From the NCBI GenBank assembly GCA_965200625.1, contig OZ241375.1, forward strand, positions 1,896,087 to 1,960,086: a DNA stretch of 64,000 nucleotides, written 5' to 3'. Made by a program: the position numbers and the translations under genes. Every line of letters starts with the position of its first letter. The stretch's first letter is position 1. This DNA is from Dehalococcoidia bacterium (GTDB lineage: Bacteria > Chloroflexota > Dehalococcoidia > Bin125). The notes under the pieces were generated by a model that worked only from the letters and a program-made list of their open reading frames with translations, did no database searches and was not told where the DNA came from. Of this stretch, positions 7,049 through 61,877 are shown one piece after another.

Positions 7049-7939
7049 CTAACGCGCAGCTTCCATGGCGGCGATCTGCTCTGACCAGGCGAGGACGTTC
7101 TCGGCCTGTTCGAGGACGGGCTTGTCAATCATCTGGCCGTCCAGCGCGACTGCGCCCAGATTCTGTTCGACGCCGTCCTGATAGGCCTCGACGACGCGGC
7201 GGGCCCAGTTGACGTCGTCTGGCGGCGGGCTGAAGACGCGGTTGGCGGGGGCGAGTTGATCGGGGTGGATGCAGAACTTGCCCTGGAAGCCGATCTCTTT
7301 CATTCGCCGGAGCTCGTCCTCGTAGCCCTCGGGGTCGCGGATGTCCGTCCAAGGGGTGTCCAGCGGGGCGATGCCGGCGGCGTGGGCGGCGTTGACGGAG
7401 GCGCGGCGGGCCAGCTCCAACTCTGCGCCGCCCTTGGTGCGGCGGACGCCGATGCTGACGGCGTAATCCTCGCCGCCGACGCAGATGCCGACCAGCCGCG
7501 CCGAGGCGGCGCAGATCTCGTAGGCGTTTGCGACCGCGTGCGCGTTTTCGATCCAGGCGGCGATCTTCACCTGGCCGTCGGCGAGGCCGCGGGCGCGTTC
7601 GATCAGGGTGAGGTAGTCGTCAATGCGCTGGACGTCGCGGGCGGACTCGATCTTGGAGACGCTGACGCCGTCCAGCCAGGGCTGGACGATGGCGTGGAGT
7701 TCCTGCTCGATCAGGCCGGTGTCGTAGCCGTTGGTGCGGACGAAGAGCTGGCGGCCGCGCTTGGGGAAATCGGGGAGGACTCGGCAGAGCAGGTCGCGGG
7801 CGGTGGGCTTGTCGTCCCAGGCGACGGAGTCTTCGAGGTCGAAGCAGAGCACGTCGGCTTGAGCGTCGCGGGCTTTCTCGATGAAGCGTTCCCGAATGCC
7901 GGGCACGGACAACATTGATCGCATCACGGTGGCGGCCAC
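7049..7939 (-). CDS. HpcH/HpaI aldolase / citrate-lyase beta (CitE)-like acyl-CoA lyase
   Basis: 296 aa; CitE/malyl-CoA lyase family pattern (SMLSVPG..., LCFDLEDSV, KIESARDV). A start at MRSM (7924) is also possible. Confidence 0.75.
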   Translation of the reverse strand: MAATVMRSMLSVPGIRERFIEKARDAQADVLCFDLEDSVAWDDKPTARDLLCRVLPDFPKRGRQLFVRTNGYDTGLIEQELHAIVQPWLDGVSVSKIESARDVQRIDDYLTLIERARGLADGQVKIAAWIENAHAVANAYEICAASARLVGICVGGEDYAVSIGVRRTKGGAELELARRASVNAAHAAGIAPLDTPWTDIRDPEGYEDELRRMKEIGFQGKFCIHPDQLAPANRVFSPPPDDVNWARRVVEAYQDGVEQNLGAVALDGQMIDKPVLEQAENVLAWSEQIAAMEAAR

Positions 7940-8640
7940 TACGAATCCTCCTGCTCGTCATCGACTGCTGCTGCGGGTCTCGTGAAGATTGTTCGCAAGC
8001 GTTCCAGATCGTCCGGGTTGTCGGTGGCGCAGCCGCGGAAGCCGAGCGCGGCGGCGGACTCGGCGTCGTCCGGGGAGCCGGAGACGACCGGGAGGTCGAA
8101 GGCGGCGGCGGTGAGGATGACCTGGGCGCGGGCGGCGGTGACGGTGTCGCTCTCGGGCGGCACGCCCAGGGACTCGGCCAGGGCGGGCTGATCGAAGGCG
8201 ATCCAGGTCATGCGCTCGGCTGAATCGCGCATGGTCTGGAGCGCGGCGGACATGAGGTTGAGCGCACGCGGGTCGTGGAAGCCGACCGCCATCGCGGTCA
8301 GTCCGGGACGAATGTTGGCGCGCAGCTCCAACTCCTCCAGGACGCCTTCGAGGTAGCGCAGCTGATCGACGCTGGCGATGGTCTGGACGCCGACGCCGTA
8401 GACGCCGGGCTGGAGGGTGTGTTGGAGGTAGGGACGCGCCAGGCCGCTGTCGATGGGGGGGATGATCAGGTAGACCGGCGGTCCGAGTTGGAGGGCGGCG
8501 TCCGTGCGCTCGGCGGCGGCGGGGTATTGGCTTTGCTCAGGCGGGTGGACCAGGATCAGGGCGTCAGCGTGCTCGACGTCGGCGGCGGCGGGCAGCGGTG
8601 TATCGGGCAGCAGGACCAACAGGGCGCGGACATTATCCAT
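7939..8640 (-). CDS. Divergent CitE/HpcH-like paralog (possibly non-catalytic)
   Basis: 233 aa with weak similarity to the HpcH fold. Stop overlaps the start of the downstream lyase gene by 1 nt (TGATG). Confidence 0.4.
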   Translation of the reverse strand: MDNVRALLVLLPDTPLPAAADVEHADALILVHPPEQSQYPAAAERTDAALQLGPPVYLIIPPIDSGLARPYLQHTLQPGVYGVGVQTIASVDQLRYLEGVLEELELRANIRPGLTAMAVGFHDPRALNLMSAALQTMRDSAERMTWIAFDQPALAESLGVPPESDTVTAARAQVILTAAAFDLPVVSGSPDDAESAAALGFRGCATDNPDDLERLRTIFTRPAAAVDDEQEDS

Positions 8641-8682: not shown

Positions 8683-10005
8683 TCAGTTGGGGTGGAAATC
8701 CGCGACCCGCTCGCGCAGCGCGTCTTGCTGCGAGAACGGTCCGACGACGGCGGCGGCGAGGTTGTCCTCGCGCACGATCCGTTGGGCGACGCGCTGGATC
8801 TCGGCGGCGGTCACGGACTCGTAGCCCGCGATTGTTTCCTCGACCTGCTCGATCGTCCCGTTGGCGAGCAGCATCCCGCCGGCGCGGTGGCACCAGCTGG
8901 CGGCCGCGTCCAGACCCAGCCGGAAGGAGCCGATCGCGTGTTCCCGCACGCGCTCCAGTTCTTCCGCCGCGACCGGCTTCGCCGCCATCCGCTGCAACTC
9001 CTCGAGCGCGACGTCGACCGTTTCCAGGATGTGCTCGGCGGTGACGCCCGCCATGATGGTCAGATGCCCGGCGTCGGCGAATGCGGACGGATGCGAGCCG
9101 ACCGAGTAGGCGAGTCCGCGCTTCTCGCGGATCTCGGTGAAGAGGCGCGAGCTCATACCGCCGCCGAGCACCTCGTTCATCAGCGCCAGCGCGTAGCGAT
9201 CCGGGTCGAGGCGCGAGATCGCGCGGAGCGCCAGCGCCAGATTGCACTGTTCCAGATCGCGCGGTTCGACCTGCGTGAGTTCAGATGACATCGCGTCGGC
9301 GGCGCGCAGCCGCGCGGGGATGGAGGCGAGCGCCCCCGCCGGCCAGCCGTCGGCCCAGTGCCGCTCCGCCAGCTCCAATACCTGCTCGCGGCCGACGTTG
9401 CCGGCGACCGAGAGCACGATGTTGGCGGGGCGGTACCAGGTCTCGATGTGGGCGGCGAGGTGGTCGCGGGTGATCGCGTCGACCGAGTCGAGGTCGCCGG
9501 CGATCTCCCAGCCCAGCGGCTGCTCGCCGTAGGCGGCCTGGGTGAGCAGCTGGCCGACGCGCTGGCCGGGCTGATCGTGGGCGCGGCGGATTTCGGAGCA
9601 GATCACCGTGCGCTCGCGCTCGATCTCCGCCTCCGCCAAGAGCGAGTGGCGGACGGAGTCGGCGAGCACGTCCATCGCCAGCGGGAGCCGATCGAAGGGC
9701 ACCCGATTCCAGTAGCAGGTCAGCTCGCGCGAGGTGAAGGCGTTGAGCGAGCCGCCGGCGCCCTCAATCGCGGCCGAGATCGCGGTCGGCTCCGGGCGCG
9801 AGGCCGTGCCTTTGAAGAGCATGTGCTCGAGGTAGTGGGAGAGGCCCAGCGTCGCGCGCGCCTCATCGCGCGAGCCGACGCCGACGTAGGCCGCGAGGAC
9901 GGCCGCCTGCGAGTGGGGAATGGCGGTGACCACAACGCGCAGGCCGTTGGCCAGAACATCAATTGTCGGTTCGACGGAGGCGGCGGGGGTGGAGGCGTGA
10001 GGCAT
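8683..10005 (-). CDS. M16-family (pitrilysin/insulinase-like) zinc peptidase
   Basis: HYLEHMLFKGT (HxxEH zinc motif). ATG at 10005 chosen; the ORF-track start 10062 is a TTG that would run into the upstream tandem repeats. Confidence 0.8.
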   Translation of the reverse strand: MPHASTPAASVEPTIDVLANGLRVVVTAIPHSQAAVLAAYVGVGSRDEARATLGLSHYLEHMLFKGTASRPEPTAISAAIEGAGGSLNAFTSRELTCYWNRVPFDRLPLAMDVLADSVRHSLLAEAEIERERTVICSEIRRAHDQPGQRVGQLLTQAAYGEQPLGWEIAGDLDSVDAITRDHLAAHIETWYRPANIVLSVAGNVGREQVLELAERHWADGWPAGALASIPARLRAADAMSSELTQVEPRDLEQCNLALALRAISRLDPDRYALALMNEVLGGGMSSRLFTEIREKRGLAYSVGSHPSAFADAGHLTIMAGVTAEHILETVDVALEELQRMAAKPVAAEELERVREHAIGSFRLGLDAAASWCHRAGGMLLANGTIEQVEETIAGYESVTAAEIQRVAQRIVREDNLAAAVVGPFSQQDALRERVADFHPN

Positions 10006-10053
10006 AGCAGGTTCAGCATAGACCGCGCCTCGATATGCTCGCTTCAGTATCAG

Positions 10054-10118
10054 GTCAGCCAAACGGGTCAGCGGGACAAGTCAGCGGGACAAGTCAGCGG
10101 GACAAGGCCGCGGGACGG
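10054..10118. repeat. 13-bp tandem repeat (GTCAGCGGGACAA x3 perfect, plus 2 degenerate flanking copies) in a divergent promoter region
   Basis: Seen directly between the M16 peptidase gene (-) and the hypothetical gene (+). Confidence 0.85.
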
Positions 10119-10126
10119 GGCAGTCG

Positions 10127-10972
10127 ATGCAGGCCTTCGTCTCGGCGCGCTATCAGTATCACTGGGCTCCGCTGACCGGCTGCCTCACGGCGCAGTTGGC
10201 GCAGATCGAGGCGGAGTTCCCGAGCCACATCATTGGCGCGGTCACCGGGATCGCCTATCAGCCGCCGCAGGACGCGGAGCTGCCCGCTCCGCTGGCGGAC
10301 GGTCTGCGGGCGCTGGGCGTTGCGGCGAAGGTGAGCGTGGTGTCACTGCCCAACCGTTGGCAGCGGTTTCGTCAGCGCCGGCGCATCCGTCGGGAGCTGC
10401 TCGCCGACCGCGCCGTGACCGCTTACGGCGTCGGCGTCTCCGCGTTTGGTCCGGCCTGGGGGCTGATCGTCGGCTTCGACGACGAGCGCCGCGCCTGGCG
10501 CCGCGACGGGCCGATGACGGAGCAGGTGTCGCCCTGGTTGGCGGAGGTGGAGTTCGACGCGGCTGCAGTCCAGGCAGTCCAGATCGTGATCACGGCGCGG
10601 CGCGTCGGCGCGGCCGACGACGGGCAGGTCGAGCGCGTCGCGCAGGCGGCGTTTGCGGGAGCGCTTGCGCGGGCGCGGAGCGATCTGCGCGGACGGATTG
10701 AGCAATTGGAGAGCGCCGTCGAGCTCGAGCCGCAGCGCCATGCGCACGAGATGCAGACGCTCGCCGCCAACTGGGGCGAGGCAGCGGCCTTCTGGCGCGC
10801 GGTGCCGCATTTCGAGTACACGCCCGCTGCGCAGCAGATCGCGGTGACGCTCTCCCGCTGCGCCACGCTGTTTCCCTATCCGATGGGCGGGCAGCCCAAT
10901 CATCCCGGCGTCCGCACGACCGCTGTCCACATTCTCCAGCGGGCTGCCGACGCTCTGCCGCCTGCCCATTGA
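10127..10972 (+). CDS. Hypothetical protein (possible papain-like/BtrH-N-like fold, very tentative)
   Basis: 281 aa, no strong motif. N-terminal TGCLTAQLAQI and later GLIVGFDD resemble the Cys and xVVVGYDD blocks of C39/BtrH-like peptidases, but the expected His is not evident. Confidence 0.45.
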   Translation: MQAFVSARYQYHWAPLTGCLTAQLAQIEAEFPSHIIGAVTGIAYQPPQDAELPAPLADGLRALGVAAKVSVVSLPNRWQRFRQRRRIRRELLADRAVTAYGVGVSAFGPAWGLIVGFDDERRAWRRDGPMTEQVSPWLAEVEFDAAAVQAVQIVITARRVGAADDGQVERVAQAAFAGALARARSDLRGRIEQLESAVELEPQRHAHEMQTLAANWGEAAAFWRAVPHFEYTPAAQQIAVTLSRCATLFPYPMGGQPNHPGVRTTAVHILQRAADALPPAH

Positions 10973-15848: not shown

Positions 15849-15880
15849 GCCGCGGCGAGAGTTTTTTGCGGAGTGCGATC

Positions 15881-16816
15881 ATGGCCTCAGTTGAAACTGT
15901 GCTTGGACCGATTGCGGCTGGCGATCTGGGTTTCACGCTGTCGCATGAGCATGTGGCGATTACGCCCAGCGTGATTACGCAGCACTATCCGTGGCTGATC
16001 GACAAGGATGCGGTTCTGGCGCGGGCGATTGAGGAGTTGACGGAGGCGAAGCAGGGGGGCGTTGACTCGTTGATTGAGCTTTCCACCCCGGATCTCAACC
16101 GCGACGTTGAGGCGATGCGCACCGCCTCCGAAGCGTCGGGCGTCAACATTGTCTGCGCGACGGGCATCTGGCGCGATCCTCCGCGTTGGCTGTGGGACAA
16201 GCATCCGGACGCGATCGCTGACATCTTTGTCCGCGAGATCGAGGTCGGGATTGCCGATACGGGGATCAAGGCCGGCGTGATCAAGGTCGCCAACGACGCG
16301 GAGGGCGTGACGCCGCAGGGCGAACTGATCCTCCGCGCCGCGGCGCGGACGTGCAAGCGCACCGGCACGCCGATCTCGACGCACCACTGGGCGCCGCTGG
16401 AGGTCGGCCGTCGGCAGGCCGAGATTTTCCAGGAGGAATCCGCGCCGATGGATCGCATCTGCATTGGGCACACCGCCGACACGGTCAACGCGGACTACAT
16501 CGAAGACCTGCTCAAGACTGGCGTCTACATCTCGATGGATCGCTATCCCGGGCCGGAGGACGGCGCGGAGCGCCCGAACTGGGTGGCGCGCAACGAGACG
16601 GTCAAGGAGCTGATCCGGCGCGGCTGGGCGGACAAGCTGATGCTCGGCCACGACTACGCGGCCTTCCCGGGGTCGCCGCGCGACTATCCCACGCGCTACC
16701 TCTTCCTGACGACGACCGCAATCCCGGCGCTGCTCGCCGACGGCGTGCCGCCGGAGACGATTGACCAGATGATGCGGGAGGTCCCGCGCGAGTTCCTCAG
16801 CGGCGAATCGAACTGA
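15881..16816 (+). CDS. Phosphotriesterase-family (PTE/PHP) metal-dependent hydrolase
   Basis: GFTLSHEHV N-terminal metal-binding motif and TIM-barrel amidohydrolase pattern. ATG at 15881; the ORF-track start 15866 is TTG. Confidence 0.8.
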   Translation: MASVETVLGPIAAGDLGFTLSHEHVAITPSVITQHYPWLIDKDAVLARAIEELTEAKQGGVDSLIELSTPDLNRDVEAMRTASEASGVNIVCATGIWRDPPRWLWDKHPDAIADIFVREIEVGIADTGIKAGVIKVANDAEGVTPQGELILRAAARTCKRTGTPISTHHWAPLEVGRRQAEIFQEESAPMDRICIGHTADTVNADYIEDLLKTGVYISMDRYPGPEDGAERPNWVARNETVKELIRRGWADKLMLGHDYAAFPGSPRDYPTRYLFLTTTAIPALLADGVPPETIDQMMREVPREFLSGESN

Positions 16817-16838
16817 GCAGATTGGGCAAGGCGATCCC

Positions 16839-17231
16839 ATGAACCGCGATGACGTCGCCGATCTCTGCGAGTCGCTGGCCGGAGCCTGGCCCGACTCGCC
16901 CTGGGGCGAGGACGATCTGGTCTACAAGCTGGGCAATCGCAACGCCGAGGGCAAGGGTGGGAAGATCTTCTGCTTCCTCGGCGGGGGCACGACCGAAGGC
17001 GCGCCGCAGGCGATCTCGCTCAAGGCCGACCCCGCGATCGTCCCCGCCCTGCACCAGCGCTACCAGGCGGTCTCGTCCCCGCGCTACCTGAACAAGTCGC
17101 ACTGGGTGATGATCACGCTCGAAGCCGACCTCCCCGACGACGAGCTCGAAGAACTGATCCTCGACTCCTACGACCGAATCCTGAGCGCATTCAGCAAGCG
17201 CCAACAACGCCTCATCCGCGGCGAGGCGTAG
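16839..17231 (+). CDS. MmcQ/YjbR-family putative DNA-binding protein
   Basis: 130 aa, small-protein pattern of the MmcQ/YjbR family. Confidence 0.55.
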   Translation: MNRDDVADLCESLAGAWPDSPWGEDDLVYKLGNRNAEGKGGKIFCFLGGGTTEGAPQAISLKADPAIVPALHQRYQAVSSPRYLNKSHWVMITLEADLPDDELEELILDSYDRILSAFSKRQQRLIRGEA

Positions 17232-17242
17232 GCGGAGCGGCG

Positions 17243-19144
17243 CTAGGCGGGGACGACTGAGAGTTCTACCCGGGAGGCTCGCTCGGTGTTGTGGTGGATG
17301 GTGTTGCGGGCGGCTTGGGTGTGGGTTTGTTGGCCGATTGGCTCGCCGGTGTTGGGGTTGATGTCGAAGCGGGGGTAGTTGGAAGAGGAGATTTCCAGGC
17401 CGATGCGGTGGCCCGCTTGGAAGGTGTTGGCGGTCGGGTACAGCTCAATCGAGACCTCCACCACCTCGCCTGGCGCGACCAGCTCCTCGCGGTCGAAGCC
17501 GTTGCGGAAGCGCAGGCGCTTGATGCTGTCGCTGATCCGCAGGCTGTAGCCCTCGGGATAGTCCGCGTTGGGCGGATAGCAATCGAGCAGCGTGGCCGTG
17601 AAATCGGTGTCCGGCGCGTCCGTCGAGACGTAGAGGCGCACCGTGAGCGGGCCGCTCACCACGACATCCGCCGCGAGCGGCGCGGTGCGGAAGGAGAGCA
17701 CGTCCGCGCGCGACGCCGTCGGCAGATAGGGCGGCTCCGCGCCCATCACGTCGGGGCGCGTGCGCTGATCAGCGCCGCCGGGCAGGATCAGCTCGCGCGA
17801 GCGCTGGGTCGGCGGCCAGATCTGCGCCTTGAGGGTGGGATCTTCAGGCGCGAACTCGCGCAGCGACGAGACGTTTGCGGAGATCGAGGGCACGGGATTG
17901 GCCGGATCGAACAGATAGCTCGACGCGCCGCCGTCCTCGCCCGCCGGCTCCGCCGCCAGTCCGCCGCCGGGCTGGAGGAACCAGTCGACGGTTTGCGCGG
18001 ACTCGGGCGGCCACTGCGCCTCCTCGCGCCACGCGCCGCCGTGATCCATGCGCCCGGACGGGATCCGCCGCCCGCTGCCGCCGCCCATCACGAACATCGT
18101 CACCGGCGGCATCTCCGCCCAGCCGCTGTCCATCCCCTTGAGCGTCTGGTCGAAGAAGCGCAGCTGCAGGTCGGGGACGCTCGCCGCCAGGTTGCCGGAG
18201 GTGGGCGCGGTTGGGCCGAAGTCCACATCGCCCGACCAGCTGCGGTCGAGCGTGACCTCGCCGTGCGTCCACGGGCCCATCAGCAGATACTGCGGCGCGG
18301 TCTTGGCGGCGCGGAACGCCTGGAACGACTCGGTGGTGGCGCGGGTGTAGCTGTCGTACCAGCCGCCCGAGTAGACGCTCGGCACATCCGCCGTCTGCTC
18401 GAGGAACTTCTCGAAGTTCATTGAGGGCAGCTGCCAGAGCCAGTCGTCCTCGCGCGCCTGGGTGAGCAGATCGATTGCCCAGCGCTCGTAATCCTGGGTC
18501 AGCGCGAGCGGCGTGTCACCGGGCTGCCAGGGCAGGCGGTTGAGGTAGCCGCGCAGATCGACCGCCGCCTGATCGAGCGCCGCGTAGAGCGCGGCGTCGC
18601 CGACCGCCTCGGGGCTGACCGGGGCGTTCCAGAAGGCCCACGCCAACCAGCGCAGCTCCAACGCTCCGCCTTGCCGCAGGGACGAGGTGAGTCCGTTGAA
18701 CGCGCCCTGATTGACCCACATCGCGGCCAGATGCGGGGGATTCTGGGTCGCCGCCGCCGACTGCACCCAGCCCATGTAGGAGGTGCCGACCGTGCCCACT
18801 TTGCCGGTTGACCAGGGATGCTCGGCCAGCCACTCGATCGTGTCGTAGCCGTCCTCCGCCTCGTTCTTGAGCAGGTAGAAGTCGCCTTCGGAGGCGAACC
18901 GGCCGCGCACGTCCTGGACGACACGGGCGTAGCCGCGCCGCGCCCACCACTCCGCGCCGGCGGCGAAGCCGAGTTTGTCGTAGGGCGTGCGCGTCAACAG
19001 CGTCGGCCAGGGACCGGGCAGGGCGACGCCGTCGCGGGCGGGCAGATAGACATCCGTCGCCAGCGATACGCCGTCCCGCATCGGCGTCCGCCGATTGCGC
19101 TGGATTACCACCTCATACGCAGGCTGCGAGTGCTCGTCGCTCAT
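17243..19144 (-). CDS. CocE/NonD-family (S15 X-Pro dipeptidyl-peptidase-like) alpha/beta hydrolase
   Basis: 633 aa with nucleophile elbow GTSYMGW and C-terminal beta-sandwich domain. Confidence 0.8.
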   Translation of the reverse strand: MSDEHSQPAYEVVIQRNRRTPMRDGVSLATDVYLPARDGVALPGPWPTLLTRTPYDKLGFAAGAEWWARRGYARVVQDVRGRFASEGDFYLLKNEAEDGYDTIEWLAEHPWSTGKVGTVGTSYMGWVQSAAATQNPPHLAAMWVNQGAFNGLTSSLRQGGALELRWLAWAFWNAPVSPEAVGDAALYAALDQAAVDLRGYLNRLPWQPGDTPLALTQDYERWAIDLLTQAREDDWLWQLPSMNFEKFLEQTADVPSVYSGGWYDSYTRATTESFQAFRAAKTAPQYLLMGPWTHGEVTLDRSWSGDVDFGPTAPTSGNLAASVPDLQLRFFDQTLKGMDSGWAEMPPVTMFVMGGGSGRRIPSGRMDHGGAWREEAQWPPESAQTVDWFLQPGGGLAAEPAGEDGGASSYLFDPANPVPSISANVSSLREFAPEDPTLKAQIWPPTQRSRELILPGGADQRTRPDVMGAEPPYLPTASRADVLSFRTAPLAADVVVSGPLTVRLYVSTDAPDTDFTATLLDCYPPNADYPEGYSLRISDSIKRLRFRNGFDREELVAPGEVVEVSIELYPTANTFQAGHRIGLEISSSNYPRFDINPNTGEPIGQQTHTQAARNTIHHNTERASRVELSVVPA

Positions 19145-19145
19145 C

Positions 19146-19796
19146 TCATGCTCCTCTGGCCAGCAGCGGCGCCACCGTGGGCGCGCTGGGGATCGATGAC
19201 CGGGTCACGTTCACATGGTTGTCCGAGGGCGGGGCGACGCTCACGCCCAGCTCGCGCAGTAATGCCGCGAGCGGTTCCAGGCCGGTTTCGACGCTGCCCG
19301 CCTCGGGCTGGTAGAGCATCGGAATCACGAGCGGCGCGGCGATTGCGCCTGCGATCCCGGCGGCGGCCTGGGGCGACAGATGCGCGCCGCCGCCGCAGGG
19401 CAGGAGCAGCACATCGGCCCGTTGCAGCTCTTCCAACGCGGCCCGCTCCGGCATTCCTTGCAGATCGCCCAGGTGGGCCACGATCACCTCATCGATCGTG
19501 ACCACGAAGGAGATGTTGCGCGCGCCGTTCGGTCCGGGCGTGCGGACGCCGGTGGCGAGCACCCGTTTGATCTCGTACTCGCCGGGCGCGTCCAGCCAGC
19601 GCTGCGGCCCGGCTGCGTCCAGCGTTACCCCGTCCAGCCAGCTGTGGGCCGCGTCCTGGCCGCGCGACACCGTGACGATGTCCGCCGTCGGCCGGTGCAT
19701 GCGGAAGCCCGTCTCTGGCGCGCACGGGTCCATCACCACCGCCGCCTCCCGGCCGCGCAAGCGGAACGCCGCATGTCCGTACCAGGCAATATCCAT
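19146..19796 (-). CDS. MBL-fold metal-dependent hydrolase (UPF0173-like)
   Basis: 216 aa; MDIAWYGHAAFRL...MDP pattern of short MBL-fold hydrolases. Stop 2 bp from the start of the CocE gene. Confidence 0.7.
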   Translation of the reverse strand: MDIAWYGHAAFRLRGREAAVVMDPCAPETGFRMHRPTADIVTVSRGQDAAHSWLDGVTLDAAGPQRWLDAPGEYEIKRVLATGVRTPGPNGARNISFVVTIDEVIVAHLGDLQGMPERAALEELQRADVLLLPCGGGAHLSPQAAAGIAGAIAAPLVIPMLYQPEAGSVETGLEPLAALLRELGVSVAPPSDNHVNVTRSSIPSAPTVAPLLARGA

Positions 19797-19849
19797 ACCG
19801 ACAGCCTACGCCCAGCAGCGCGAAGCGCCGCCAAACGCCTGCCAGCGGT

Positions 19850-21121
19850 TCAGCCGGCGAGGATGGGGAGCTCGTCGCCGGCCGCTGCCTGGTGGGGCAT
19901 CAGGACGAGCGCCGCGTTCTGGCCGTGCGCTCCGTAGGCGGCGGCCGCCGCGCCCACGATCCGATCCTCGCGCAGCCGCTCGCTGAAGCCCAGACCGCAG
20001 GCGATGTCCGGCTCGCGGAACGTGGCGTGCGGGGGAATCTGGCGCTGCTCGACGATCTTGGCCCCGGCCAGCGCCGACAACGCGCCCGCCGCGCCGACCG
20101 TGTAGCCCACGTTCGGCGAGACCGTGACCGCGTACATATCCAGCGTCCGCCGCCCGAAGGCGCGCTCGATGATGTCCGTCTCGCGCTCGTCGCCCTGCTT
20201 CGAGCCCAGCCCGGCGGTCACGACGACGTCAATGTCGGCGGGCGCGATCTCGCCGCCCAGCAGCGCCTCGCCCGTCGCCCGCCGCGCGACCTCGACATCG
20301 GTCGGCGCGTGGCCGTCGCCCATTGGTCCGGCGGTCAGCGCCTCGCCGCCGATCTCCGCGTAGATGTGCACGCCGCGCTGGACGGCCAGCTGGCGATCTT
20401 CCAGCATCAGCGCCGCCGCGCCCTCGCCCAGCACCATGCCCTGGCGCGTGGCGTCGAACGGCCGCTGGGCGCTCGGATCGGCGGAGCGATCGAGCAGCCC
20501 CGCTGATTCGTAGGCCTCCCAGATGTCCGGGCGCAGCGGCGCTTCCGCGCCGATCGCGAGCGCCGCCCGCATGGTTCCCGCGCGGATCAGCTGCGCCGCC
20601 AGCACGACCGCGGCAAGCCCCGACGCGCCGCCCATTGACACCGTGAAGACCGGCCCGGCGATGTTCAGCCCCAGCGACGCGCCCGACAAGCCCGAGCCCA
20701 GCCGCGCCCAACCGGCGTCCGCGTCCGTGTCTGCGCCCGCGCCGGCGCCAGGATGGGCGATGCCGCTGACCGCTCCGACCACGAACGCGTTCTGCTGGTT
20801 GAACTCGATTCGCGCATCGGTCTGCGCCTGAATGGCCGCGTCCAGGGCCAGCTGCGAGGCGCGATCCATCCGCGCCAGGAGCCAGTCTGGCGCGCCCGAC
20901 GGGCCGCGCCACGACTCGTCCACCTGGCCCGCCGCCGCCGCCCGCGGCGCGGTGAAGGCGCGCAGCGTGGATGCGCACACCCGCCCCTCGCAGAGCGCCG
21001 CCCAGAAATCCGCCGCCGTCTGCCCGGCCGCTGTGACCGCGCCGATCCCGGTGATCACCACCCGCCGGCGCTCCTCCGGGCTCGATTGGCCGACGCCTCG
21101 ATGCACGCCTCCGCTGACCAT
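19850..21121 (-). CDS. Beta-ketoacyl-ACP synthase (FabF-like) homolog lacking the Cys-His-His catalytic triad (pseudo-ketosynthase)
   Basis: VVITGIGAVTAAG N-terminus and thiolase fold. Active-site block reads GPVFTVSMGGASG (Cys to Gly), the NAHGTST block reads VTAGLGS (His to Ala), and the GHLLGAAG block reads GYTVGAAG (His to Tyr). Confidence 0.75.
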   Translation of the reverse strand: MVSGGVHRGVGQSSPEERRRVVITGIGAVTAAGQTAADFWAALCEGRVCASTLRAFTAPRAAAAGQVDESWRGPSGAPDWLLARMDRASQLALDAAIQAQTDARIEFNQQNAFVVGAVSGIAHPGAGAGADTDADAGWARLGSGLSGASLGLNIAGPVFTVSMGGASGLAAVVLAAQLIRAGTMRAALAIGAEAPLRPDIWEAYESAGLLDRSADPSAQRPFDATRQGMVLGEGAAALMLEDRQLAVQRGVHIYAEIGGEALTAGPMGDGHAPTDVEVARRATGEALLGGEIAPADIDVVVTAGLGSKQGDERETDIIERAFGRRTLDMYAVTVSPNVGYTVGAAGALSALAGAKIVEQRQIPPHATFREPDIACGLGFSERLREDRIVGAAAAAYGAHGQNAALVLMPHQAAAGDELPILAG

Positions 21122-21242
21122 CGCTCAACCCCAATCCTCATCGCGCGGACCGCTGCCAACTGCTGTTTGGCGTGTCCTGTGACACCCCGCGGGCGCGGAG
21201 ATTGCTTTGCCGATTCTCCCGAACGCTGCTACGATCACGGCG

Positions 21243-21269
21243 TTAGCACTCTCTGCGCGAGAGTGCCAA
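21243..21269 (+). promoter_or_regulatory. CIRCE operator (HrcA-binding inverted repeat) TTAGCACTC-N9-GAGTGCCAA
   Basis: Near-perfect match to consensus TTAGCACTC-N9-GAGTGCTAA, about 50 bp upstream of the hrcA start. Confidence 0.85.
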
Positions 21270-21317
21270 CTGCATCTTACGACAGCCTCAGCGCCAGAAA
21301 CCGACAGCGTCCGCACG

Positions 21318-22454
21318 ATGCCCTCTGACCGTTCCTCTGACCGCTCCAGCGATCGTCCGAGCGATCGCCTGAGCGATCGCCGCGCCGGCATCTTGCAGCT
21401 GGTCATCCAGGACTACATCGAAACCGCGACGCCGGTCGCCTCGCGCCATGTCGTGGAAAAATACGCCCTGCCCGCCTCGCCCGCCACGATCCGCCACGAA
21501 ATGCACGCGCTCGAGCAGGAGGGCTACCTGGCCCATCCGCACACCTCCGCGGGCCGCGTGCCCTCCAACCGCGGCTACCGCCACTTTGTCCAGTCGCTCA
21601 TGGGCCACGCCGAGCTTGGCCTGGCCGAGCAGGCCTCCGTGCGCCACCAGTTTTTTCAGGCCGCGCCTGCGGTTGATGAGTGGGTCGAGCTGGCCGCCAC
21701 CGTCCTGGCGCGCTCGCTCGGGTTGCTGGTGATCGTTGCGCCGCCCCATCCCGAGCGCCTGCGCGTGCGCCAACTGGAGCTGATCTCGCTCAACGAGCTG
21801 CTCGTCCTGATGATCGTCGTCGTCCAGGAAGCGCGGATGATTCGCCAGCTGATGCCGCTGCCTCAGCCGATCGAGGTGGACGAACTCGACGAGCTCGCCG
21901 CCAAGCTCTCCTGGATGCTGCGCGGCCGCTCCGCGCCGGACGTGCGCGAGGCGGCCCGCCTTGCCCTCGACGCGCCCGGTACCCACCCGGTCGAGCACTT
22001 TGTCCTCGATACGCTCGCCCAGGTGCTCGACCGTGACGCGCAGCGCGCCGGCGTGCCCGCCATCGCCGGCCTCGGCGGGATGATGGCGCAGCCTGAGTTC
22101 CAGCACGAGCCGCTGCGCTCGCTGGAACTGATTGAACTGGTTGACCAGCACGCCGCGGAAGACCTGATCCCCAGCGCCGTGATCGACGATCTCACCCAGC
22201 GCAGCGACATCCGCGGCGCCATGCACGTCCTGATCGGCGACGACCATCCGACGGAGCTGCTCCAGGAGTGCTCGCTCGTCCTTGCGCCCTACCGTTCGAC
22301 CGCCGCCGCCGACGCTGACGCGCCCGAGATTCCCGGTTACGTCGGGATTATCGGGCCGACACGGATGAACTACCCGCGCAGCATCGCCGCCGCGCGCTTC
22401 TACTCGCAACTGCTCCAGGAAATGATCGACGCCGTCTACGGAGCCAATCGATGA
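21318..22454 (+). CDS. hrcA: Heat-inducible transcription repressor HrcA
   Basis: ILQLVIQDYIETATPVASRHV N-terminal wHTH. Preceded by a CIRCE element and followed by grpE-dnaK. N-terminus carries an SDRSSDRSSDRPSDRLSDR tandem peptide repeat. Confidence 0.9.
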   Translation: MPSDRSSDRSSDRPSDRLSDRRAGILQLVIQDYIETATPVASRHVVEKYALPASPATIRHEMHALEQEGYLAHPHTSAGRVPSNRGYRHFVQSLMGHAELGLAEQASVRHQFFQAAPAVDEWVELAATVLARSLGLLVIVAPPHPERLRVRQLELISLNELLVLMIVVVQEARMIRQLMPLPQPIEVDELDELAAKLSWMLRGRSAPDVREAARLALDAPGTHPVEHFVLDTLAQVLDRDAQRAGVPAIAGLGGMMAQPEFQHEPLRSLELIELVDQHAAEDLIPSAVIDDLTQRSDIRGAMHVLIGDDHPTELLQECSLVLAPYRSTAAADADAPEIPGYVGIIGPTRMNYPRSIAAARFYSQLLQEMIDAVYGANR

Positions 22455-24954: not shown

Positions 24955-25647
24955 TCAATCCTCCAGCTCGGCCTCCGCCTCCGCCAACAGGAGGATCAGC
25001 CGCTGGGCCAGCGCAGGGACGTGCGCTTGGATGATCTCCCAGAGCTGCTCCGGCTCGATCTGGTAGTAGGCGTGGACAATCCGATGGCGCAGGCCGATCG
25101 TCTCGCGCCACGCAATCTCCGGATGCGCGTCCCGCACCCGGCGGGGGATCTTCCCCGCCTGCTCGCCGAGCTGCAGCAGGTGGAAACTCACCAGGTCGAA
25201 CCGATCCTCGTCGGCCAAGAATTCCTCGTAGTTGATCCCGGTCGTGCTGCCGATGACCCGCGCGCAGCGCTGCTGCATCTCCCGCACGTAGACGTCCCAG
25301 CGCTTGGGGCGTGATTCGTCGGGCATATGCGGCCTCGGATTCAGGGGATCGACTGCTTCGGCCTCGACCCAGGGCAGATACTCGCGGCGCATGTGCCGCT
25401 GCTCGACCAGATCAACCTTGCGCCCGAACAGCGCTTCGAGGTAAACCTCCGCCTCGGAGCGGCCCCAGGACCATTCGCAGTCGAGGGAGCCTACGAGGAT
25501 ATCGACGTCGCTCTCGGCGGTCGCCTCATCGCGCGCGGTGGAGCCGAACAAGCGCAGGTCGCGCACGCCAAAACGCTCGCGCAGCACCGGCAGATGCGCG
25601 CGCAGCAGCGCCAACGCCTCGTCCCTGCTGATCGCCTGATTGCTCAT
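24955..25647 (-). CDS. Fused minimal nucleotidyltransferase (MntA-like) - HEPN/HepT-like RNase domain protein, copy 1
   Basis: N-terminal LFGSTARDEATAESDVDILV (GSxxRGxxxxxSDxDxxV MNT motif); C-terminal GLRHRIVHAYYQ (HepT/DUF86 Rx4HxY). Convergent with dnaK (17 bp gap). Confidence 0.8.
   Translation of the reverse strand: MSNQAISRDEALALLRAHLPVLRERFGVRDLRLFGSTARDEATAESDVDILVGSLDCEWSWGRSEAEVYLEALFGRKVDLVEQRHMRREYLPWVEAEAVDPLNPRPHMPDESRPKRWDVYVREMQQRCARVIGSTTGINYEEFLADEDRFDLVSFHLLQLGEQAGKIPRRVRDAHPEIAWRETIGLRHRIVHAYYQIEPEQLWEIIQAHVPALAQRLILLLAEAEAELED
25288..25625. repeat. Direct repeat copy A (about 338 bp, roughly 97% identical to 26063-26400) covering the MNT-domain half of the fused gene
   Basis: Nucleotide alignment by eye of the 5' halves of the two paralogs. 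Confidence 0.8.
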
Positions 25648-25725
25648 CACCGCGCCTGCGCGTCCAGATTACCGCCCCGCGCTGCCTGCCTGTCCGGCGG
25701 CAACCGCGCCGCGCCCGCGCTGTCC

Positions 25726-26424
25726 TCAATCCTCCAGCTCGGCCTCCGCCTCCGCCTCCGCCAACAGCGGCTCCAGCTGTTCCGCCAACGCGGGGACGTG
25801 GTGCTGGATGATCTCCCAGAGCTTCGCCGGCTCGATCTGGTAGTAGGCGTGGGCGATCCGGTTGCGTAGGCCGATCGTCTCGCGCCACGCGATCTCAGGA
25901 TGCGCCTCGCGCACCGACGGCGGCGCCTTGCCTGCCAACTCGCCGATCTGGAGCAGATTGAAACTGACCGCCCGCAGCGTCCGCTCGTCGGCCAGATAGG
26001 CGTCGTAGTCCATCCCCGCCGTGAAGGCGGTGACCTCGCGGCAGTACTTGAGCATGTCGCGGATGTAGACGTCCCAGCGCTTGGGGCGTGATTCGTTGGG
26101 CATGTGGGGCCTCGGATTCAGGGGATCGACCGCCTCGGCCTCGACCCAGGGCAGATACTCGCGGCGCATGTGCCGCTGCTCGACCAGATCAACCTTGCGG
26201 CCGAACAGCGCTTCGAGGTAAACCTCCGCCTCGGAGCGGCCCCAGGACCATTCGCAGTCGAGGGAGCCGACGAGGATATCGACGTCGCTCTCGGCGGTCG
26301 CCTCATCGCGCGCCGTGGAGCCGAACAAGCGCAGGTCGCGCACGCCGAAGCGCTCGCGGAGCACCGGCAGATGCGCGCGCAGCAGCGCCAACGCCTCGTC
26401 CCGCCCCGTCACCGGCCTCGTCAT
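25726..26424 (-). CDS. Fused MNT - HEPN/HepT-like protein, copy 2 (tandem paralog)
   Basis: Same MNT motif; HEPN half diverged but carries the canonical GLRNRIAHAYYQ motif. Confidence 0.8.
   Translation of the reverse strand: MTRPVTGRDEALALLRAHLPVLRERFGVRDLRLFGSTARDEATAESDVDILVGSLDCEWSWGRSEAEVYLEALFGRKVDLVEQRHMRREYLPWVEAEAVDPLNPRPHMPNESRPKRWDVYIRDMLKYCREVTAFTAGMDYDAYLADERTLRAVSFNLLQIGELAGKAPPSVREAHPEIAWRETIGLRNRIAHAYYQIEPAKLWEIIQHHVPALAEQLEPLLAEAEAEAELED
26063..26400. repeat. Direct repeat copy B (MNT-domain half of paralog 2)
   Basis: See copy A. Confidence 0.8.
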
Positions 26425-57741: not shown

Positions 57742-58992
57742 TCAGCGGGCGGCGTTCCAAAGTTGCGCTCGCTCGAGGAAGATGGTCGGCTGCGCGGACC
57801 ATTCCGGGTAGCCGATTGCGCCGTCGTCGGTGAGCCAGCCGATCAGCTCGTTCAGACAATCGCGCAGCGCGGTTTCCGCGCGGGGCAGGGCGAAGCCGCC
57901 GCGCTCCATCTGCGGATCGAGCGCGGTGACGACGAAGCGTCCGGCGCTGGCGCGGGCCGCGTCCGTGTTGCCGATCTCGCCCCGCGCGAAGCCGGAGATC
58001 TGCCCCGCCTCCAGCGCCTCGAGGTAGGCGGCATCATCGTCGCCGAGATGGACGACCACGGGCCGCTCACCGGGCGGCGTCAGACGGGTGCGTCCCTCAA
58101 GCTCCGGCGAGTGCGCCGCCGACGAAATCTGGAAGCGCGCCGTGCCGTCGGCGGTCACGGCGCCCAGCGGCGTCTCGATCACCGTGCCGGCCAGGAGGGT
58201 ACCGTCCGCGTCGGCGATGCCGCTGAGCTGGAGGAACCGCGCCTCGCCGGTCGTGGCCGCGACCGCGCCGACGACGTCCGCGGCGGTCAGGTCGGCGTGG
58301 CTGGCGATCCGGCCGGCGTCGGCGGCGCGGATCAGCAGCGACTGGCGAAAGTTGATGTGGCCGTCGGTGAAGGCGATCACTGCCTCGCCGCTGGCGTCGC
58401 GGGTGCGTGACTCCAGGATCGTGATCCCGCCGCCGACCAGGTCGAGGTAGGGGCCGGTCGGGGTCAGCCAGATGTCGGACCAGTCCGCGATGGGGATGCG
58501 CTGGAAGCGCAGGTTGGCGTCGTCCAGGGCGGCGATTGCGCTGAGCAGATCCGCCTCATAGCCGCGCTGGAGAGCGAAGCCGGGCGAGGCGGGATCGGGG
58601 TCGGCGCTGTAGCTGACGGGCGGGAACGAGGCGAAGAAGCCAACGTTGAGCAGGCGCGGCGCGGCCGGGCAGGAGGCGGCGCGCGCCACGGTCGGGCGAG
58701 GCAAGAGGCGGAAGAGAGAAGAATGACGCCAAACGCCGGCCGGCGCGTCGGCGGGCAGGAACCGAGCGTTGGGCAATGGGTGGAATTCCCAGCTGGCCAC
58801 ACTGTCAACCGGGCCAACCGGGCCAACTGGGCGCTGTTGTAGCGCGACCTCGACGCGGCCGTCGGCCAGCCGTCGGGCGCTGATCCGCAGCTCTTCGTCG
58901 GCGCGCTGGTCGTTGCCGCGGGTAATCATGAGCACGGCGGCGCTGAGCGTCAGGAGCCCGCCGAGCAGCATGCCGAGTCGGTACCTGCTCAT
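57742..58992 (-). CDS. Membrane-anchored extracellular solute-binding-like protein (hypothetical)
   Basis: N-terminal TM anchor; weak resemblance to periplasmic binding protein folds. Confidence 0.4.
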   Translation of the reverse strand: MSRYRLGMLLGGLLTLSAAVLMITRGNDQRADEELRISARRLADGRVEVALQQRPVGPVGPVDSVASWEFHPLPNARFLPADAPAGVWRHSSLFRLLPRPTVARAASCPAAPRLLNVGFFASFPPVSYSADPDPASPGFALQRGYEADLLSAIAALDDANLRFQRIPIADWSDIWLTPTGPYLDLVGGGITILESRTRDASGEAVIAFTDGHINFRQSLLIRAADAGRIASHADLTAADVVGAVAATTGEARFLQLSGIADADGTLLAGTVIETPLGAVTADGTARFQISSAAHSPELEGRTRLTPPGERPVVVHLGDDDAAYLEALEAGQISGFARGEIGNTDAARASAGRFVVTALDPQMERGGFALPRAETALRDCLNELIGWLTDDGAIGYPEWSAQPTIFLERAQLWNAAR

Positions 58993-59004
58993 GGCGTGCG
59001 TGTC

Positions 59005-60276
59005 CTAACCGATGCGGCGGAAGACGAGACAGGCATTCTGTCCGCCGAAGCCGAAGGAGTTCTTGAGCACGGCGTTGACCTCCACCGCGCGCGCCTGGTT
59101 GGGCACGTAGTCGAGGTCGCAGTCGGGATCGGGCGTGGTGTAGTTGATCGTCGGGTGGATGCGGCCGTCGGTGATGGACTTGATCGCGGCGATCGATTCC
59201 AGTCCGCCCGCGCCGCCGAAGAGGTGGCCGATCATCGATTTGGTGGAGGAGATCGGAATCGCGCGCGCCGCCTCGCCGAGCGCGACCTTGAGCGCGTTGG
59301 TCTCGGAGGCGTCGTTGAGCGGGGTCGAGGTACCGTGCGCGTTGACGTAGTCGAGCTCGTCCGGTGTGATTCCGGCGTCCGCCAGCGCCCAGTTGATCGC
59401 GCGGATCGGGCCCGCCCCGTCGGCGTCGGGCATGACCAGGTGGTGGGCGTCGGCGGAGGAGCCGAAGCCGGCCAGTTCGACCTGATAATCGACGCCCCGC
59501 CGGCGGGCGGATGCCTCCGATTCAAGCACGATGATGCCGGCGCCCTCGCCGGGCACGAAGCCGTCGCGCTCGGCGTCGAAGGGGCGCGAGGCGCCGGTCG
59601 GATCGTCGTTGCGCGAGCTGAGCGCGCGCATCACCGCGAAGCCGCCCAGTCCCAGCTGGCAGAAGCCGGCCTCGGTGCCGCCGGAGATGACGATGTCGGC
59701 GAGGCCGTTGCGGATCACGTTGGCGGCGTCGCCGAGCGCCTGGGTGCCGGCCGCGCAAGCGGTGACGACGGTCGTGTTGTAGCCCAGCAAGCCGAACTGC
59801 ATCGCAATGTTGGCGGCCGCCATGTTGGGCAGCACCTTGGGCAGGAAGAGCGGATCGAGCCGCATCCCGCCGCGCGCGAAGAGCGTGCTCGCCGTGGCCT
59901 GGATTTCGGGATAGCCGCCCGCGCCGTTGCCGAGCACGACGCCGATGCGGCTGCGATCGAGCGCGTCAAGGTCGAGCTGCGCGTCGGCGACCGCTTCGCG
60001 CGCGGCGGCGACGGCCAGCTGCGTGAAGCGGGCCATCCGCCGCGCTGACTTGCGCTCGATGAAGTCGCGCGCGTCGAAGCCGCGAATCTCGCCGCCGATC
60101 GTGCAGCTGAATCCGGAGACGTCGAAGTTCTCGATCGGTTTGATCGCGCTCTCGCCCTCCAGCAGCTGCGTCCACAGCGGATCGACGCCGGGGCCGTAGG
60201 GCGAGACCGCGCCCAGGCCGGTGACGACCACTCGGGTGCGTTCGGGTCGGTCGGGGGCGGTCTCGGATTCGGTCAT
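59005..60276 (-). CDS. fabF: 3-oxoacyl-ACP synthase II
   Basis: VVVTGLGAVSP and an intact catalytic triad (TACAAG, NAHGTST, GHLFGGAG). Confidence 0.9.
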   Translation of the reverse strand: MTESETAPDRPERTRVVVTGLGAVSPYGPGVDPLWTQLLEGESAIKPIENFDVSGFSCTIGGEIRGFDARDFIERKSARRMARFTQLAVAAAREAVADAQLDLDALDRSRIGVVLGNGAGGYPEIQATASTLFARGGMRLDPLFLPKVLPNMAAANIAMQFGLLGYNTTVVTACAAGTQALGDAANVIRNGLADIVISGGTEAGFCQLGLGGFAVMRALSSRNDDPTGASRPFDAERDGFVPGEGAGIIVLESEASARRRGVDYQVELAGFGSSADAHHLVMPDADGAGPIRAINWALADAGITPDELDYVNAHGTSTPLNDASETNALKVALGEAARAIPISSTKSMIGHLFGGAGGLESIAAIKSITDGRIHPTINYTTPDPDCDLDYVPNQARAVEVNAVLKNSFGFGGQNACLVFRRIG

Positions 60277-61709
60277 AGGGTCGGATCCTCAGCGCGGCGG
60301 GCGATGGTGGTTGGAGGTGGCGTTTGCAGCAGGCGGCGGGCGTCGGCGGCGAGCGAGAGCGAGCCGAGCACCAGAATCAGATCCCCACCGCGCGCCTCCT
60401 GAGCGGCGGCGGCGAGCGCGCTGCCCACGTCGGCGTGGACGGTGACCGCGCCCTGCCAGTCCGGATCAGCGAAGGCGTCCGCGACCGGCTGCGGCGGACG
60501 GGCGCGGGGATGATCGGAGGTGGTGGCGTAGACGCGCGCGGCGCGGGTCTGGATGATGCGGGCCATGTCCTGCAGCGCCTTGTCACCGAGCACGCCGAAG
60601 ATCACGTGCAGCTGCTCGTGCGGGAAGTAGTCGCGGCAGGCGTCGAGCGCGCGCTGCACCGACTCCGCGTTGTGCGCGCCGTCGATCACGACGGTCGGCG
60701 GGCCTTCCAGCTCACTGGCGGCGAACGCGCGGGGCAGCGGGAACGATTCGAGCCGCGCCGGCCAGCGCACGGTGGCGAGTCCGCGGTGCAGCGCCGCCGA
60801 CGGCACCGCGACCGCGCCGGCGGCGTTGAGCGCGTCGATGGCGGCGATCGCGGTGACCGCGTTGTCGATCTGGTGGCGGCCCAGCAGGGGCAGCAGATGC
60901 AGCGCGCGGGACGGCTCGCCGGGGCGCGGCTGGCGGCGCTCGACGCGGAACCACTGCCCCCACGGCTCGACGCCGGCCGGTTCGCTGCGGTAGTCCGCGC
61001 CGACGTCGACGAGCGGCGCGGGCACGTCGTCGGCGGCGTTGCGGACGACGTCGGCGGCCTCGGCAAAGCGCTGCGGCGCGAGCACCGCCGTGCGGCAGGC
61101 GGCGCTGATGATGCCCGCTTTCTCGGCGGCGATCTGGGTGATCTTGTCGCCCAGAATGTCGGTGTGTTCGTGCGAGAGCGAGGTGATCACGGCGGCGTCG
61201 GTGCGGTGGAAGACGTTGGTGCTGTCCAGCCGACCGCCGAGCCCGACCTCGACGATCTGCACGTCCACGTCCTGCGCGTGGAAGGCGTGAAAGCTGAGCG
61301 CGGTGAGGATTTCAAAGGTGCTGATGTGGCCCGGATCGGCGGCCAGCTCGGCCTCGATCACCTGGCGCAGCTGCTCGCAGAGGCGGGCGAACTCGGGCTC
61401 GGGCAGGGGCGCACCGTCGATCTGGATGCGCTCGGTGAACTCGTGCAGATGGGGGCTCGTGAAGAGGCCGGTGCGGAAGCTGGCGGCGCGGAGGATCGAT
61501 TCGAGGATCGCAGCGGTCGAGCCTTTGCCCTTGCTGCCCGCGATATGAATCGTGACGCGGCCGTGTTGCGGATCGCCGAGCCGGCGCAGCAGCGCGCGGA
61601 TGCGGTCCAGGGCGAAGTCCGGCTTCGCCCGCCGCGGCCCGGAGCCGCGCTCGAAGTCGGCGAACGACATCAGCCAATCGACTGCCTCCCGATAGCCGCT
61701 GATCGGCAT
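60273..61709 (-). CDS. folC: Bifunctional folylpolyglutamate synthase / dihydrofolate synthase
   Basis: HIAGSKGKGST P-loop and Mur-ligase middle/C-terminal domains. ATG at 61709; stop overlaps the fabF start. Confidence 0.85.
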   Translation of the reverse strand: MPISGYREAVDWLMSFADFERGSGPRRAKPDFALDRIRALLRRLGDPQHGRVTIHIAGSKGKGSTAAILESILRAASFRTGLFTSPHLHEFTERIQIDGAPLPEPEFARLCEQLRQVIEAELAADPGHISTFEILTALSFHAFHAQDVDVQIVEVGLGGRLDSTNVFHRTDAAVITSLSHEHTDILGDKITQIAAEKAGIISAACRTAVLAPQRFAEAADVVRNAADDVPAPLVDVGADYRSEPAGVEPWGQWFRVERRQPRPGEPSRALHLLPLLGRHQIDNAVTAIAAIDALNAAGAVAVPSAALHRGLATVRWPARLESFPLPRAFAASELEGPPTVVIDGAHNAESVQRALDACRDYFPHEQLHVIFGVLGDKALQDMARIIQTRAARVYATTSDHPRARPPQPVADAFADPDWQGAVTVHADVGSALAAAAQEARGGDLILVLGSLSLAADARRLLQTPPPTTIARRAEDPTL

Positions 61710-61877
61710 CCACCCGCTCCTTGCTGCGCTCGTTGCTGCGCTGTTCCGGCGGTTTTGACGGCTCGTTTCATCGTACGCCACTTGATCAGGCGGTTTCAGG
61801 CTGCGACGATCCGCACGATGGCACAATGTATGGCGGCGCAATTGCGGTGCAGCGCCGCAGCACGAGCGGAACTCTAG

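Follow-up and report, generated by a model that had tools for sequence, protein, structure and literature searches.

The 64,000-nucleotide stretch analyzed here (hereafter the window) comes from a Dehalococcoidia bacterium (contig OZ241375.1, positions 1,896,087 to 1,960,086) and contains a gene for a ketosynthase (KS)-like protein from which all catalytic residues are gone. The protein carries the Pfam domains PF00109 and PF02801 (ketoacyl synthase, N- and C-terminal). Its gene shares a strand with genes for a metallo-beta-lactamase (MBL)-fold protein and for a serine hydrolase of the CocE/NonD family (domains Peptidase_S15/PepX_C), while hrcA-grpE-dnaK are divergent from the three (Table 1). 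The gaps between the open reading frames (ORFs) are 53 nt (KS-like/MBL-like) and 1 nt (MBL-like/CocE-NonD); an earlier reading of the sequence, here called the original prediction, was thus correct in describing the KS-like gene as co-directional and tightly spaced with two downstream genes and divergent from hrcA. We favour the longer ATG start because the MVSGG...RG extension at the N-terminus is kept in close relatives. Scans with Rfam, PADLOC and for promoters and terminators gave no result for the three genes; the promoter scan located no promoter for the KS-like gene, and no terminator-like site was detected within 17000-21400.

Table 1. Positions of the genes and sites discussed in the text. 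Coordinates refer to the window except in the last row.
Feature	Position	Strand	Remarks
KS-like gene (FabF-fold pseudo-ketosynthase without the triad)	19850..21121	minus	423 aa from ATG 21121; database start GTG 21061, giving 403 aa
MBL-fold gene (Lactamase_B_3, TM0207-like, degenerate metal site)	19146..19796	minus	216 aa
CocE/NonD family serine hydrolase gene	17243..19144	minus	633 aa
Phosphotriesterase-family and YjbR genes	15866-17231	plus	between CocE/NonD and rho
hrcA	21318..22454	plus	likely ATG 21318; PF01628 on the 378-aa call
Probable hrcA promoter TTGCCG-17-TACGAT	21207..21235	plus	read from the sequence; points away from the KS-like gene
CIRCE operator TTAGCACTC-N9-GAGTGCCAA	21243..21269	plus	between the KS-like gene and hrcA
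Genuine fabF (KASII)	59005..60276	minus	Cys/His/Lys/His/Phe all present
Lineage without the KS-like gene	L091 3802-5897; L092 390-2485		MBL-like gene retained

Loss of the ketosynthase residues

The KS-like protein was compared with KS sequences and structures in four alignments, namely a MAFFT alignment with the window's own FabF (32% identity), phmmer alignments with Synechocystis FabF and act KS-alpha from the PDB, an L-INS-i alignment of 117 sequences that includes E. coli FabF (its sequence was confirmed to be identical to PDB 6okg_A), and a Foldseek superposition of an AlphaFold model on FabF. Numbering in the family alignment (A3) is the ORF numbering minus 1. All four alignments concur that, in FabF numbering, Cys163 is replaced by Gly, His303 by Ala and His340 by Tyr. 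These are the substitutions that the original prediction had read from the sequence. It had also considered that the triad could be shifted but present; no displaced Cys or His that would compensate for the lost residues was found in the alignments. The losses go beyond the triad, as Lys335 is replaced by Ser, Phe400 by Ala, Asp265 by Gly and Glu349 by Ser. The protein contains the motifs RRRVVITGIGAV, GPVFTVSMGGASG, VVTAGLGSKQGD and NVGYTVGAAG.

A homologue search in 5.8 billion proteins placed the protein in a family of 93 clusters, which form an unbroken series from 100% down to about 50% identity (848 to 321 bits). Below the family the scores fall abruptly; the next sequences, ordinary FabF and type II KS-alpha proteins, begin at 34% identity and 169 bits. 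The same residues are missing throughout: the Cys163 position is occupied by Gly in 77 and by Ala in 16 of the 93 clusters, the His303 position by Ala (87), Gly (3) or Ser (2), the Lys335 position by Thr (49) or Ser (42) and the Phe400 position by Ala, Ser or Thr. The His340 position is Tyr in 78 members, and the His is retained in 9. All five residues are intact in the 28 canonical KS of the comparison set. The gating motif GFGG has become G(A/S/T)HG (GAHG in the window protein), and in loop 2 Asp265 (87/87), His268 and Thr270 are all replaced by Gly. Hydrophobic residues take the place of Thr305, which binds pantetheine. What the family retains are structural positions only, namely Asp311, Glu314, the Arg of RMDR and the motifs RPFD, GEGA and GQNA.

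The surface that binds acyl carrier protein (ACP) was examined using the ACP-FabF interface and gating elements as defined by Mindrebo et al. (PMC7138838). Within the family K65 is replaced by W, R68 by A/E/S, R127 by A, K128 by A/F/Q and R206 by G (83/87), and residues 130-134 are deleted, a segment that includes the hydrophobic ACP patch and Phe133. Among the docking positions K65, R68, K69, R127, K128, R206 and 129-132 only an Arg equivalent to K69 is retained. Neither net charge nor isoelectric point sets the family apart from canonical KS. With the nucleophile, the oxyanion and decarboxylation histidines, Lys335 and the gate all missing, the protein can neither acylate nor decarboxylate nor condense, and its canonical ACP-docking surface is lost.

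The AlphaFold model (predicted local distance difference test, pLDDT, 85.6; predicted template modelling score, pTM, 0.88) indicates that the protein has the thiolase (alpha-beta-alpha-beta-alpha) fold of FabF. Foldseek aligned it to the FabF structures 1e5m, 4ls5 and 1kas with template modelling (TM) scores of 0.86-0.88 and a root mean square deviation of 2.4 Å at 24-26% identity; a 423-aa FabF-like protein with this fold is also what the original prediction had proposed. FabF/KASII (TIGR03150) is the top-scoring family as well as the best structural match and is the likely evolutionary source of the KS-like family. However, the window protein scores only 170.1 bits on TIGR03150, which is below the cut-off of 493.75, and it differs from FabF/KASII in the absence of Cys163, His303, Lys335, His340, Phe400, Asp265 and most ACP contacts.

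The former active-site cavity is not collapsed but remodelled in a conserved way. Small residues occupy the positions of Cys163, His303, Lys335 and Phe400, and Tyr that of His340. In the 117-sequence alignment, furthermore, I108 is replaced by His in 86 of 87 members, F202 by Tyr or Trp in 85 of 87 and G401 by His in 61 of 87. A motif GDE[LIV]P, absent from the canonical KS that we compared, lies 2-4 residues from the C-terminus in 63-73 of the 87 full-length members. The tail has low pLDDT in the model and is probably flexible. The segment equivalent to FabF 108-140 lines the tunnel where the dimer halves meet. Its length and sequence vary, part of it is deleted, and disorder is predicted for it (pLDDT <50 at 126-141).

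The gene behaves as one under selection. Its ORF is intact in every locus examined, family-specific motifs and length are conserved across the 93 clusters, and an identical protein (403 aa from GTG 21061) occurs on four contigs, two of which come from separate sequencing runs. The ratio of nonsynonymous to synonymous substitution rates (dN/dS) in three close pairs was 0.15, 0.23 and 0.32 for the KS-like gene, 0.10, 0.21 and 0.38 for the MBL-like gene and 0.07, 0.18 and 0.11 for hrcA. The calculation was restricted to close pairs because synonymous sites are saturated in distant ones (proportion of synonymous differences, pS, about 0.5-0.6). Over long distances the amino acid divergence of the KS-like protein is about that of HrcA. 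The intact ORFs together with dN/dS values of 0.15-0.32 indicate a selected protein and not a pseudogene, in line with the original prediction; sequencing error, which the latter had named as a possible source of the substitutions, is excluded by the four identical copies and by the recurrence of the losses across the clusters. We are confident that the protein is functional and inactive as a KS.

The named members of the family come from Chloroflexi/Chloroflexota metagenome-assembled genomes (MAGs); a single GTDB representative was recovered, a MAG with the label IRC3_bin_11. For the neighbouring Rho protein, those relatives that have a name bear the label Chloroflexota or Dehalococcoidia. 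The family was seen only in Chloroflexota/Dehalococcoidia MAGs and belongs to one clade of Chloroflexota, probably Dehalococcoidia. Judging from their accession series, several of the MAGs presumably come from marine sponge metagenomes. We found no description of the family in the literature searched. Two further searches added little. A scan of genome contigs with the family alignment, made for taxonomy and co-occurrence, was dropped; 79 of its 80 loci were ordinary FabFs and L004 alone belonged to the family, since the back-translated patterns GAEAPL and GEGAAxLxLE are generic to KS. A profile search in a representative library of 1.84 billion proteins was swamped by giant polyketide synthases, in which the scores of several KS domains are summed; it showed only that this library reduces the family to about one 50% cluster (P0077).

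A conserved pair of genes

Nine distinct loci with the KS-like gene were compared: the window (= L084), L001, L002, L003, L086, L087, L089, L090 and L093. In all nine the MBL-like gene lies downstream of the KS-like gene on its strand, with a gap of 25-110 nt in eight loci and of 965 nt in L001. The gap in L001, unlike the others, holds a pair of small ORFs of 96 and 138 aa without a Pfam match, at 9386-10158. The CocE/NonD gene is found in the loci of the window's subclade (L001, L002 and L084); the YjbR and phosphotriesterase-family genes that accompany it were observed only on the window's own contigs (L084, L085). The CocE/NonD gene is absent from L003, L086, L087, L089, L090 and L093, where rho directly follows the MBL-like gene. 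The original prediction had treated the three genes as a trio; this does not hold, as the CocE/NonD gene is a later, subclade-specific insertion and is ruled out as a core partner by its absence from six loci. The conserved unit is the pair of KS-like and MBL-like genes, both of which encode degenerate enzyme folds.

The MBL-like protein (PF13483, 93.5 bits) is closest to TM0207 (PDB 1vjn; E = 1.8e-19, 31% identity), and its model (pLDDT 85.8) has TM scores of 0.78/0.86 to this structure. It shares with TM0207-type MBLs the fold and the HLGD motif. Unlike these, it has lost four canonical metal-ligand positions in all of the 120 nearest homologues: HQHFDH of TM0207 has become (R/N)x(D/A)xxH, and PMHY has become PMLY, with Leu in place of the C-terminal ligand His. 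In the window protein the first motif reads R-G-Q-D-A-A-H, so that only the last His of HxHxDH is kept. From these residues we predict that the canonical binuclear metal site cannot form. A residual mononuclear site may exist. With four ligand positions lost in 120/120 homologues, the protein probably does not act as a canonical MBL hydrolase.

The CocE/NonD protein scores 369 bits on TIGR00976 (cut-off 66.3). Its Ser (GTSYMG), Asp (GGWYDS), His (GPWTHG) and oxyanion Tyr (TPYDK) align with the catalytic residues of the cocaine esterase CocE, and it is probably an active hydrolase. The original prediction of "hydrolase partners" is therefore borne out for the CocE/NonD protein, which has an intact triad, and not for the MBL-fold protein.

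The pairing is not obligatory, as loci L091 and L092 contain hrcA, a 176-bp spacer, the MBL-like gene and rho, with the KS-like gene missing. In a neighbour-joining tree of Rho rooted with L094, L091 is nested within the KS-bearing genomes (85% and 77% bootstrap), which indicates a secondary loss of the KS-like gene in the L091 lineage. The outgroup Dehalococcoidia locus L094 has not retained the synteny and gives no ancestral state that would tell whether the KS-like gene was gained beside a pre-existing MBL-like gene. Across the clade the whole region is syntenic, in the order rsmE-prmA-dnaJ-dnaK-grpE-hrcA / KS MBL / rho-tal-DUF2269-pyrG-thiS.

A tblastn search of the window detected the KS-like gene and the genuine fabF as its only KS genes and gave no match to an AcpP-like gene. 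The genuine fabF scores 548.8 bits on TIGR03150, above the cut-off, and encodes the motifs TACAAG, NAHGTST, STKSMIGH and FGFGGQN. The original prediction had pointed to this gene as an intact fabF, leaving its strand unstated; it is on the minus strand. It lies outside any fab operon (57742-61841, minus); its start shares 4 nt with a Mur-ligase-family gene (60273-61841), and the gene after it is SBP_bac_3-like.

Possible roles of the ketosynthase-like protein

Loss of the triad alone is not unusual. In the anammox protein amxFabFmut the Cys is replaced by Val/Thr and both His are replaced, and a typical Cys-His-His triad is said to be missing from the chain length factors (CLFs) ActB and Iga12 (preprint 10.64898/2026.05.19.726425). 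These examples contradict the view in the original prediction that non-catalytic KS homologues usually keep part of the triad. amxFabFmut (PDB 9s5h) resembles the window protein in that it is a stand-alone, folded, FabF-derived protein with all three triad residues replaced, and phmmer aligns the two over the full length (9s5h_C, E = 2e-29). The substitutions differ, being Val/Thr and Asn/Glu/Cys in amxFabFmut and Gly/Ala/Tyr in the window protein. Furthermore, amxFabFmut is encoded directly upstream of the active amxFabF2 in a cluster for lipid biosynthesis that has an ACP of its own, and it forms a KS/CLF-like heterodimer (preprint 10.64898/2026.05.19.726425). The window protein has neither KS nor ACP neighbours and has lost the ACP-docking residues.

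The CLFs of type II polyketide synthases (PKSs) likewise are non-condensing KS paralogues with a thiolase fold, and the actinorhodin CLF (1tqy_B, E = 3.7e-24) and Iga12 (6kxd) are both significant phmmer matches of the window protein. Classical CLFs have Gln at the Cys position, which is Gly or Ala in the KS-like family. CLFs are co-encoded with KS-alpha and ACP in PKS clusters, whereas the window protein belongs to no such cluster and its tunnel-forming segment is not conserved. Thus, of the features of a CLF, the missing condensing residues were found in the window protein, and an adjacent KS/ACP cluster and a conserved tunnel-lining segment were not. Since all catalytic features of FabF fail as well, the protein is an orphan pseudo-ketosynthase, which is a member of neither the FabF nor the CLF group. 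Its unusual features are this orphan status, the missing surface for ACP docking and a partner gene that encodes a degenerate enzyme fold as well.

Our preferred reading, which we hold tentatively, is that the KS-like protein is a non-catalytic binding or scaffold protein that is co-expressed with the MBL-like protein. It is suggested by the cavity, where the new residues are conserved and either small or polar aromatic instead of random or bulky, and by the conserved acidic-hydrophobic tail. A FabF-derived protein with a thiolase fold has been kept by purifying selection in one clade of Chloroflexota, probably within the Dehalococcoidia. The remodelled polar pocket could hold a small ligand, the GDE[LI]P tail could dock a partner, or both, and the protein would be made from one transcript with the degenerate MBL-fold protein. 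Several points weigh against this reading. The conserved polar residues of the pocket could equally well form a new catalytic site. A ligand or partner of the protein is putative, as is a complex with the MBL-like protein. In L091/L092 the MBL-like gene has remained while the KS-like gene is absent, and because the whole region is syntenic by descent, the adjacency of the two genes is weak evidence of a functional link.

Alternatively, the protein could act like a CLF, that is, as a dead KS that heterodimerizes with an active KS whose gene lies elsewhere, such as the genuine FabF of the window, and reshapes its substrate tunnel. Defective KS paralogues, some without any triad residue, do serve as obligate partners (KS/CLF, Iga11/Iga12, amxFabF2/amxFabFmut), and the core strands and helices of FabF are retained in the protein, in agreement with its matches to 9s5h_C, 1tqy_B and 6kxd. 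However, known genes of the CLF type adjoin that of their KS partner, and no second PF00109 gene occurs within +/-6-10 kb of the KS-like gene in any of the nine loci; in the window as a whole the genuine fabF is the only other KS gene, and an ACP gene was not detected. The variable and presumably disordered equivalent of FabF 108-140 is the opposite of what is expected from an element that measures chain length, and the KS-like gene was lost in a nested lineage. We therefore regard a CLF-like subunit as unlikely.

We give similarly little weight to the idea that the protein has become a new enzyme, with a site built from His123, Tyr204, Tyr340, His399 and the retained Asp311/Glu314, which would perform a chemistry other than Claisen condensation, possibly on a substrate in common with the downstream proteins. 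The replacements in the pocket are conserved and polar and, by homology to FabF, would cluster around the old active site; the nucleophile elbow has become Gly-Gly-Ala-Ser-Gly at the N-terminus of a helix, which is a plausible anion-binding site; and in the window's subclade the CocE/NonD hydrolase with its intact triad starts 1 nt past the stop codon of the MBL-like gene. Nevertheless the protein offers no candidate nucleophile, the hydrophobic residues at position 305 and the Gly-rich gating loops do not favour an enzyme, and the context suggests no particular chemistry. In addition, His399 occurs in only 61 of 87 members and Tyr340 is replaced by His in 9.

A broader version, in which two co-transcribed pseudoenzymes under purifying selection form a dedicated module that either performs a new chemistry in a re-lined thiolase pocket or works as a non-catalytic ligand-sensing or chaperone-linked complex tied to the HrcA/CIRCE locus, in Chloroflexota lineages that presumably include sponge MAGs, appears doubtful to us.

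Any tie of the KS-like protein to the chaperone operon controlled by HrcA would run through the controlling inverted repeat of chaperone expression (CIRCE). The CIRCE match has one mismatch and is the only one in the window (0 in 100 shuffles), and the core of the inverted repeat is kept in 7 of 7 aligned intergenic regions. It lies directly downstream of a sequence that is probably the hrcA promoter, about 50 nt upstream of the hrcA ATG. The reverse complement of this promoter is conserved in close relatives, and its score is under the threshold of the consensus scanner. The KS-like and MBL-like proteins could belong to a stress regulon, being co-regulated with hrcA-grpE-dnaK-dnaJ via the CIRCE region and acting in the heat-shock response, for example as a client, holdase or sensor. 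The divergence from hrcA is conserved in eight loci, and the MBL-like gene alone shows it in L091/L092; the intergenic region that contains the CIRCE core is as short as 107 bp in L003, so that co-regulation is possible. However, the CIRCE is downstream of the -10 element of hrcA, which is the normal arrangement for repression of hrcA itself, and is about 120 nt away from the ATG of the KS-like gene. In L089 hrcA and the KS-like gene have three genes between them while the pair stays intact, and with the whole region syntenic across the clade the adjacency to hrcA may be inherited. This makes a stress accessory quite improbable.

The absence of all catalytic residues might suggest a pseudogene in decay or an error of assembly or sequencing, but both are refuted by the intact ORFs, the four identical contigs, the 93 clusters with conserved length and motifs and the dN/dS values.

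The finding is real, conserved and somewhat unusual, within a narrow taxonomic range and with precedent for KS paralogues that lack the triad. The only role so far understood for non-catalytic KS paralogues (CLF, amxFabFmut) is that of a partner to an active KS encoded next to them. If characterized, the pseudo-KS would extend the repertoire of the thiolase superfamily beyond acyl-carrier chemistry. Automated annotation labels some members of the family as "3-oxoacyl-ACP synthase II", and such labels would inflate the counts of fatty acid or polyketide genes in Chloroflexota MAGs, among them the presumed sponge MAGs.

Further observations around hrcA

The cluster hrcA-grpE-dnaK-(MNT/HepT x2)-dnaJ is present in the window, and its synteny is kept in all loci examined. 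The genes between hrcA and the KS-like gene in L089 (3402-5885) are a Fic-domain gene and two unannotated ORFs. In L002 the spacer between hrcA and the KS-like gene (7531-8001) contains tandem GC-rich palindromic repeats of about 37 nt (GGAATCGCCCCCCTATGCAGGGGGGCTGTCGCG-like units), which the other loci lack. HrcA of the window (378 aa) has an N-terminal low-complexity repeat MPSDRSSDRSSDRPSDRLSDRR, encoded at 21318-21383 (+), which is absent from its relatives of 339-341 aa. Between dnaK and dnaJ lie two tandem paralogous fusions of MNT and HepT-like RNase, at 24955-25650 (-) and 25726-26424 (-). They combine a toxin-antitoxin pair in one chain and match the PADLOC candidate system PDC-S09; L001 has a single copy at the equivalent place.

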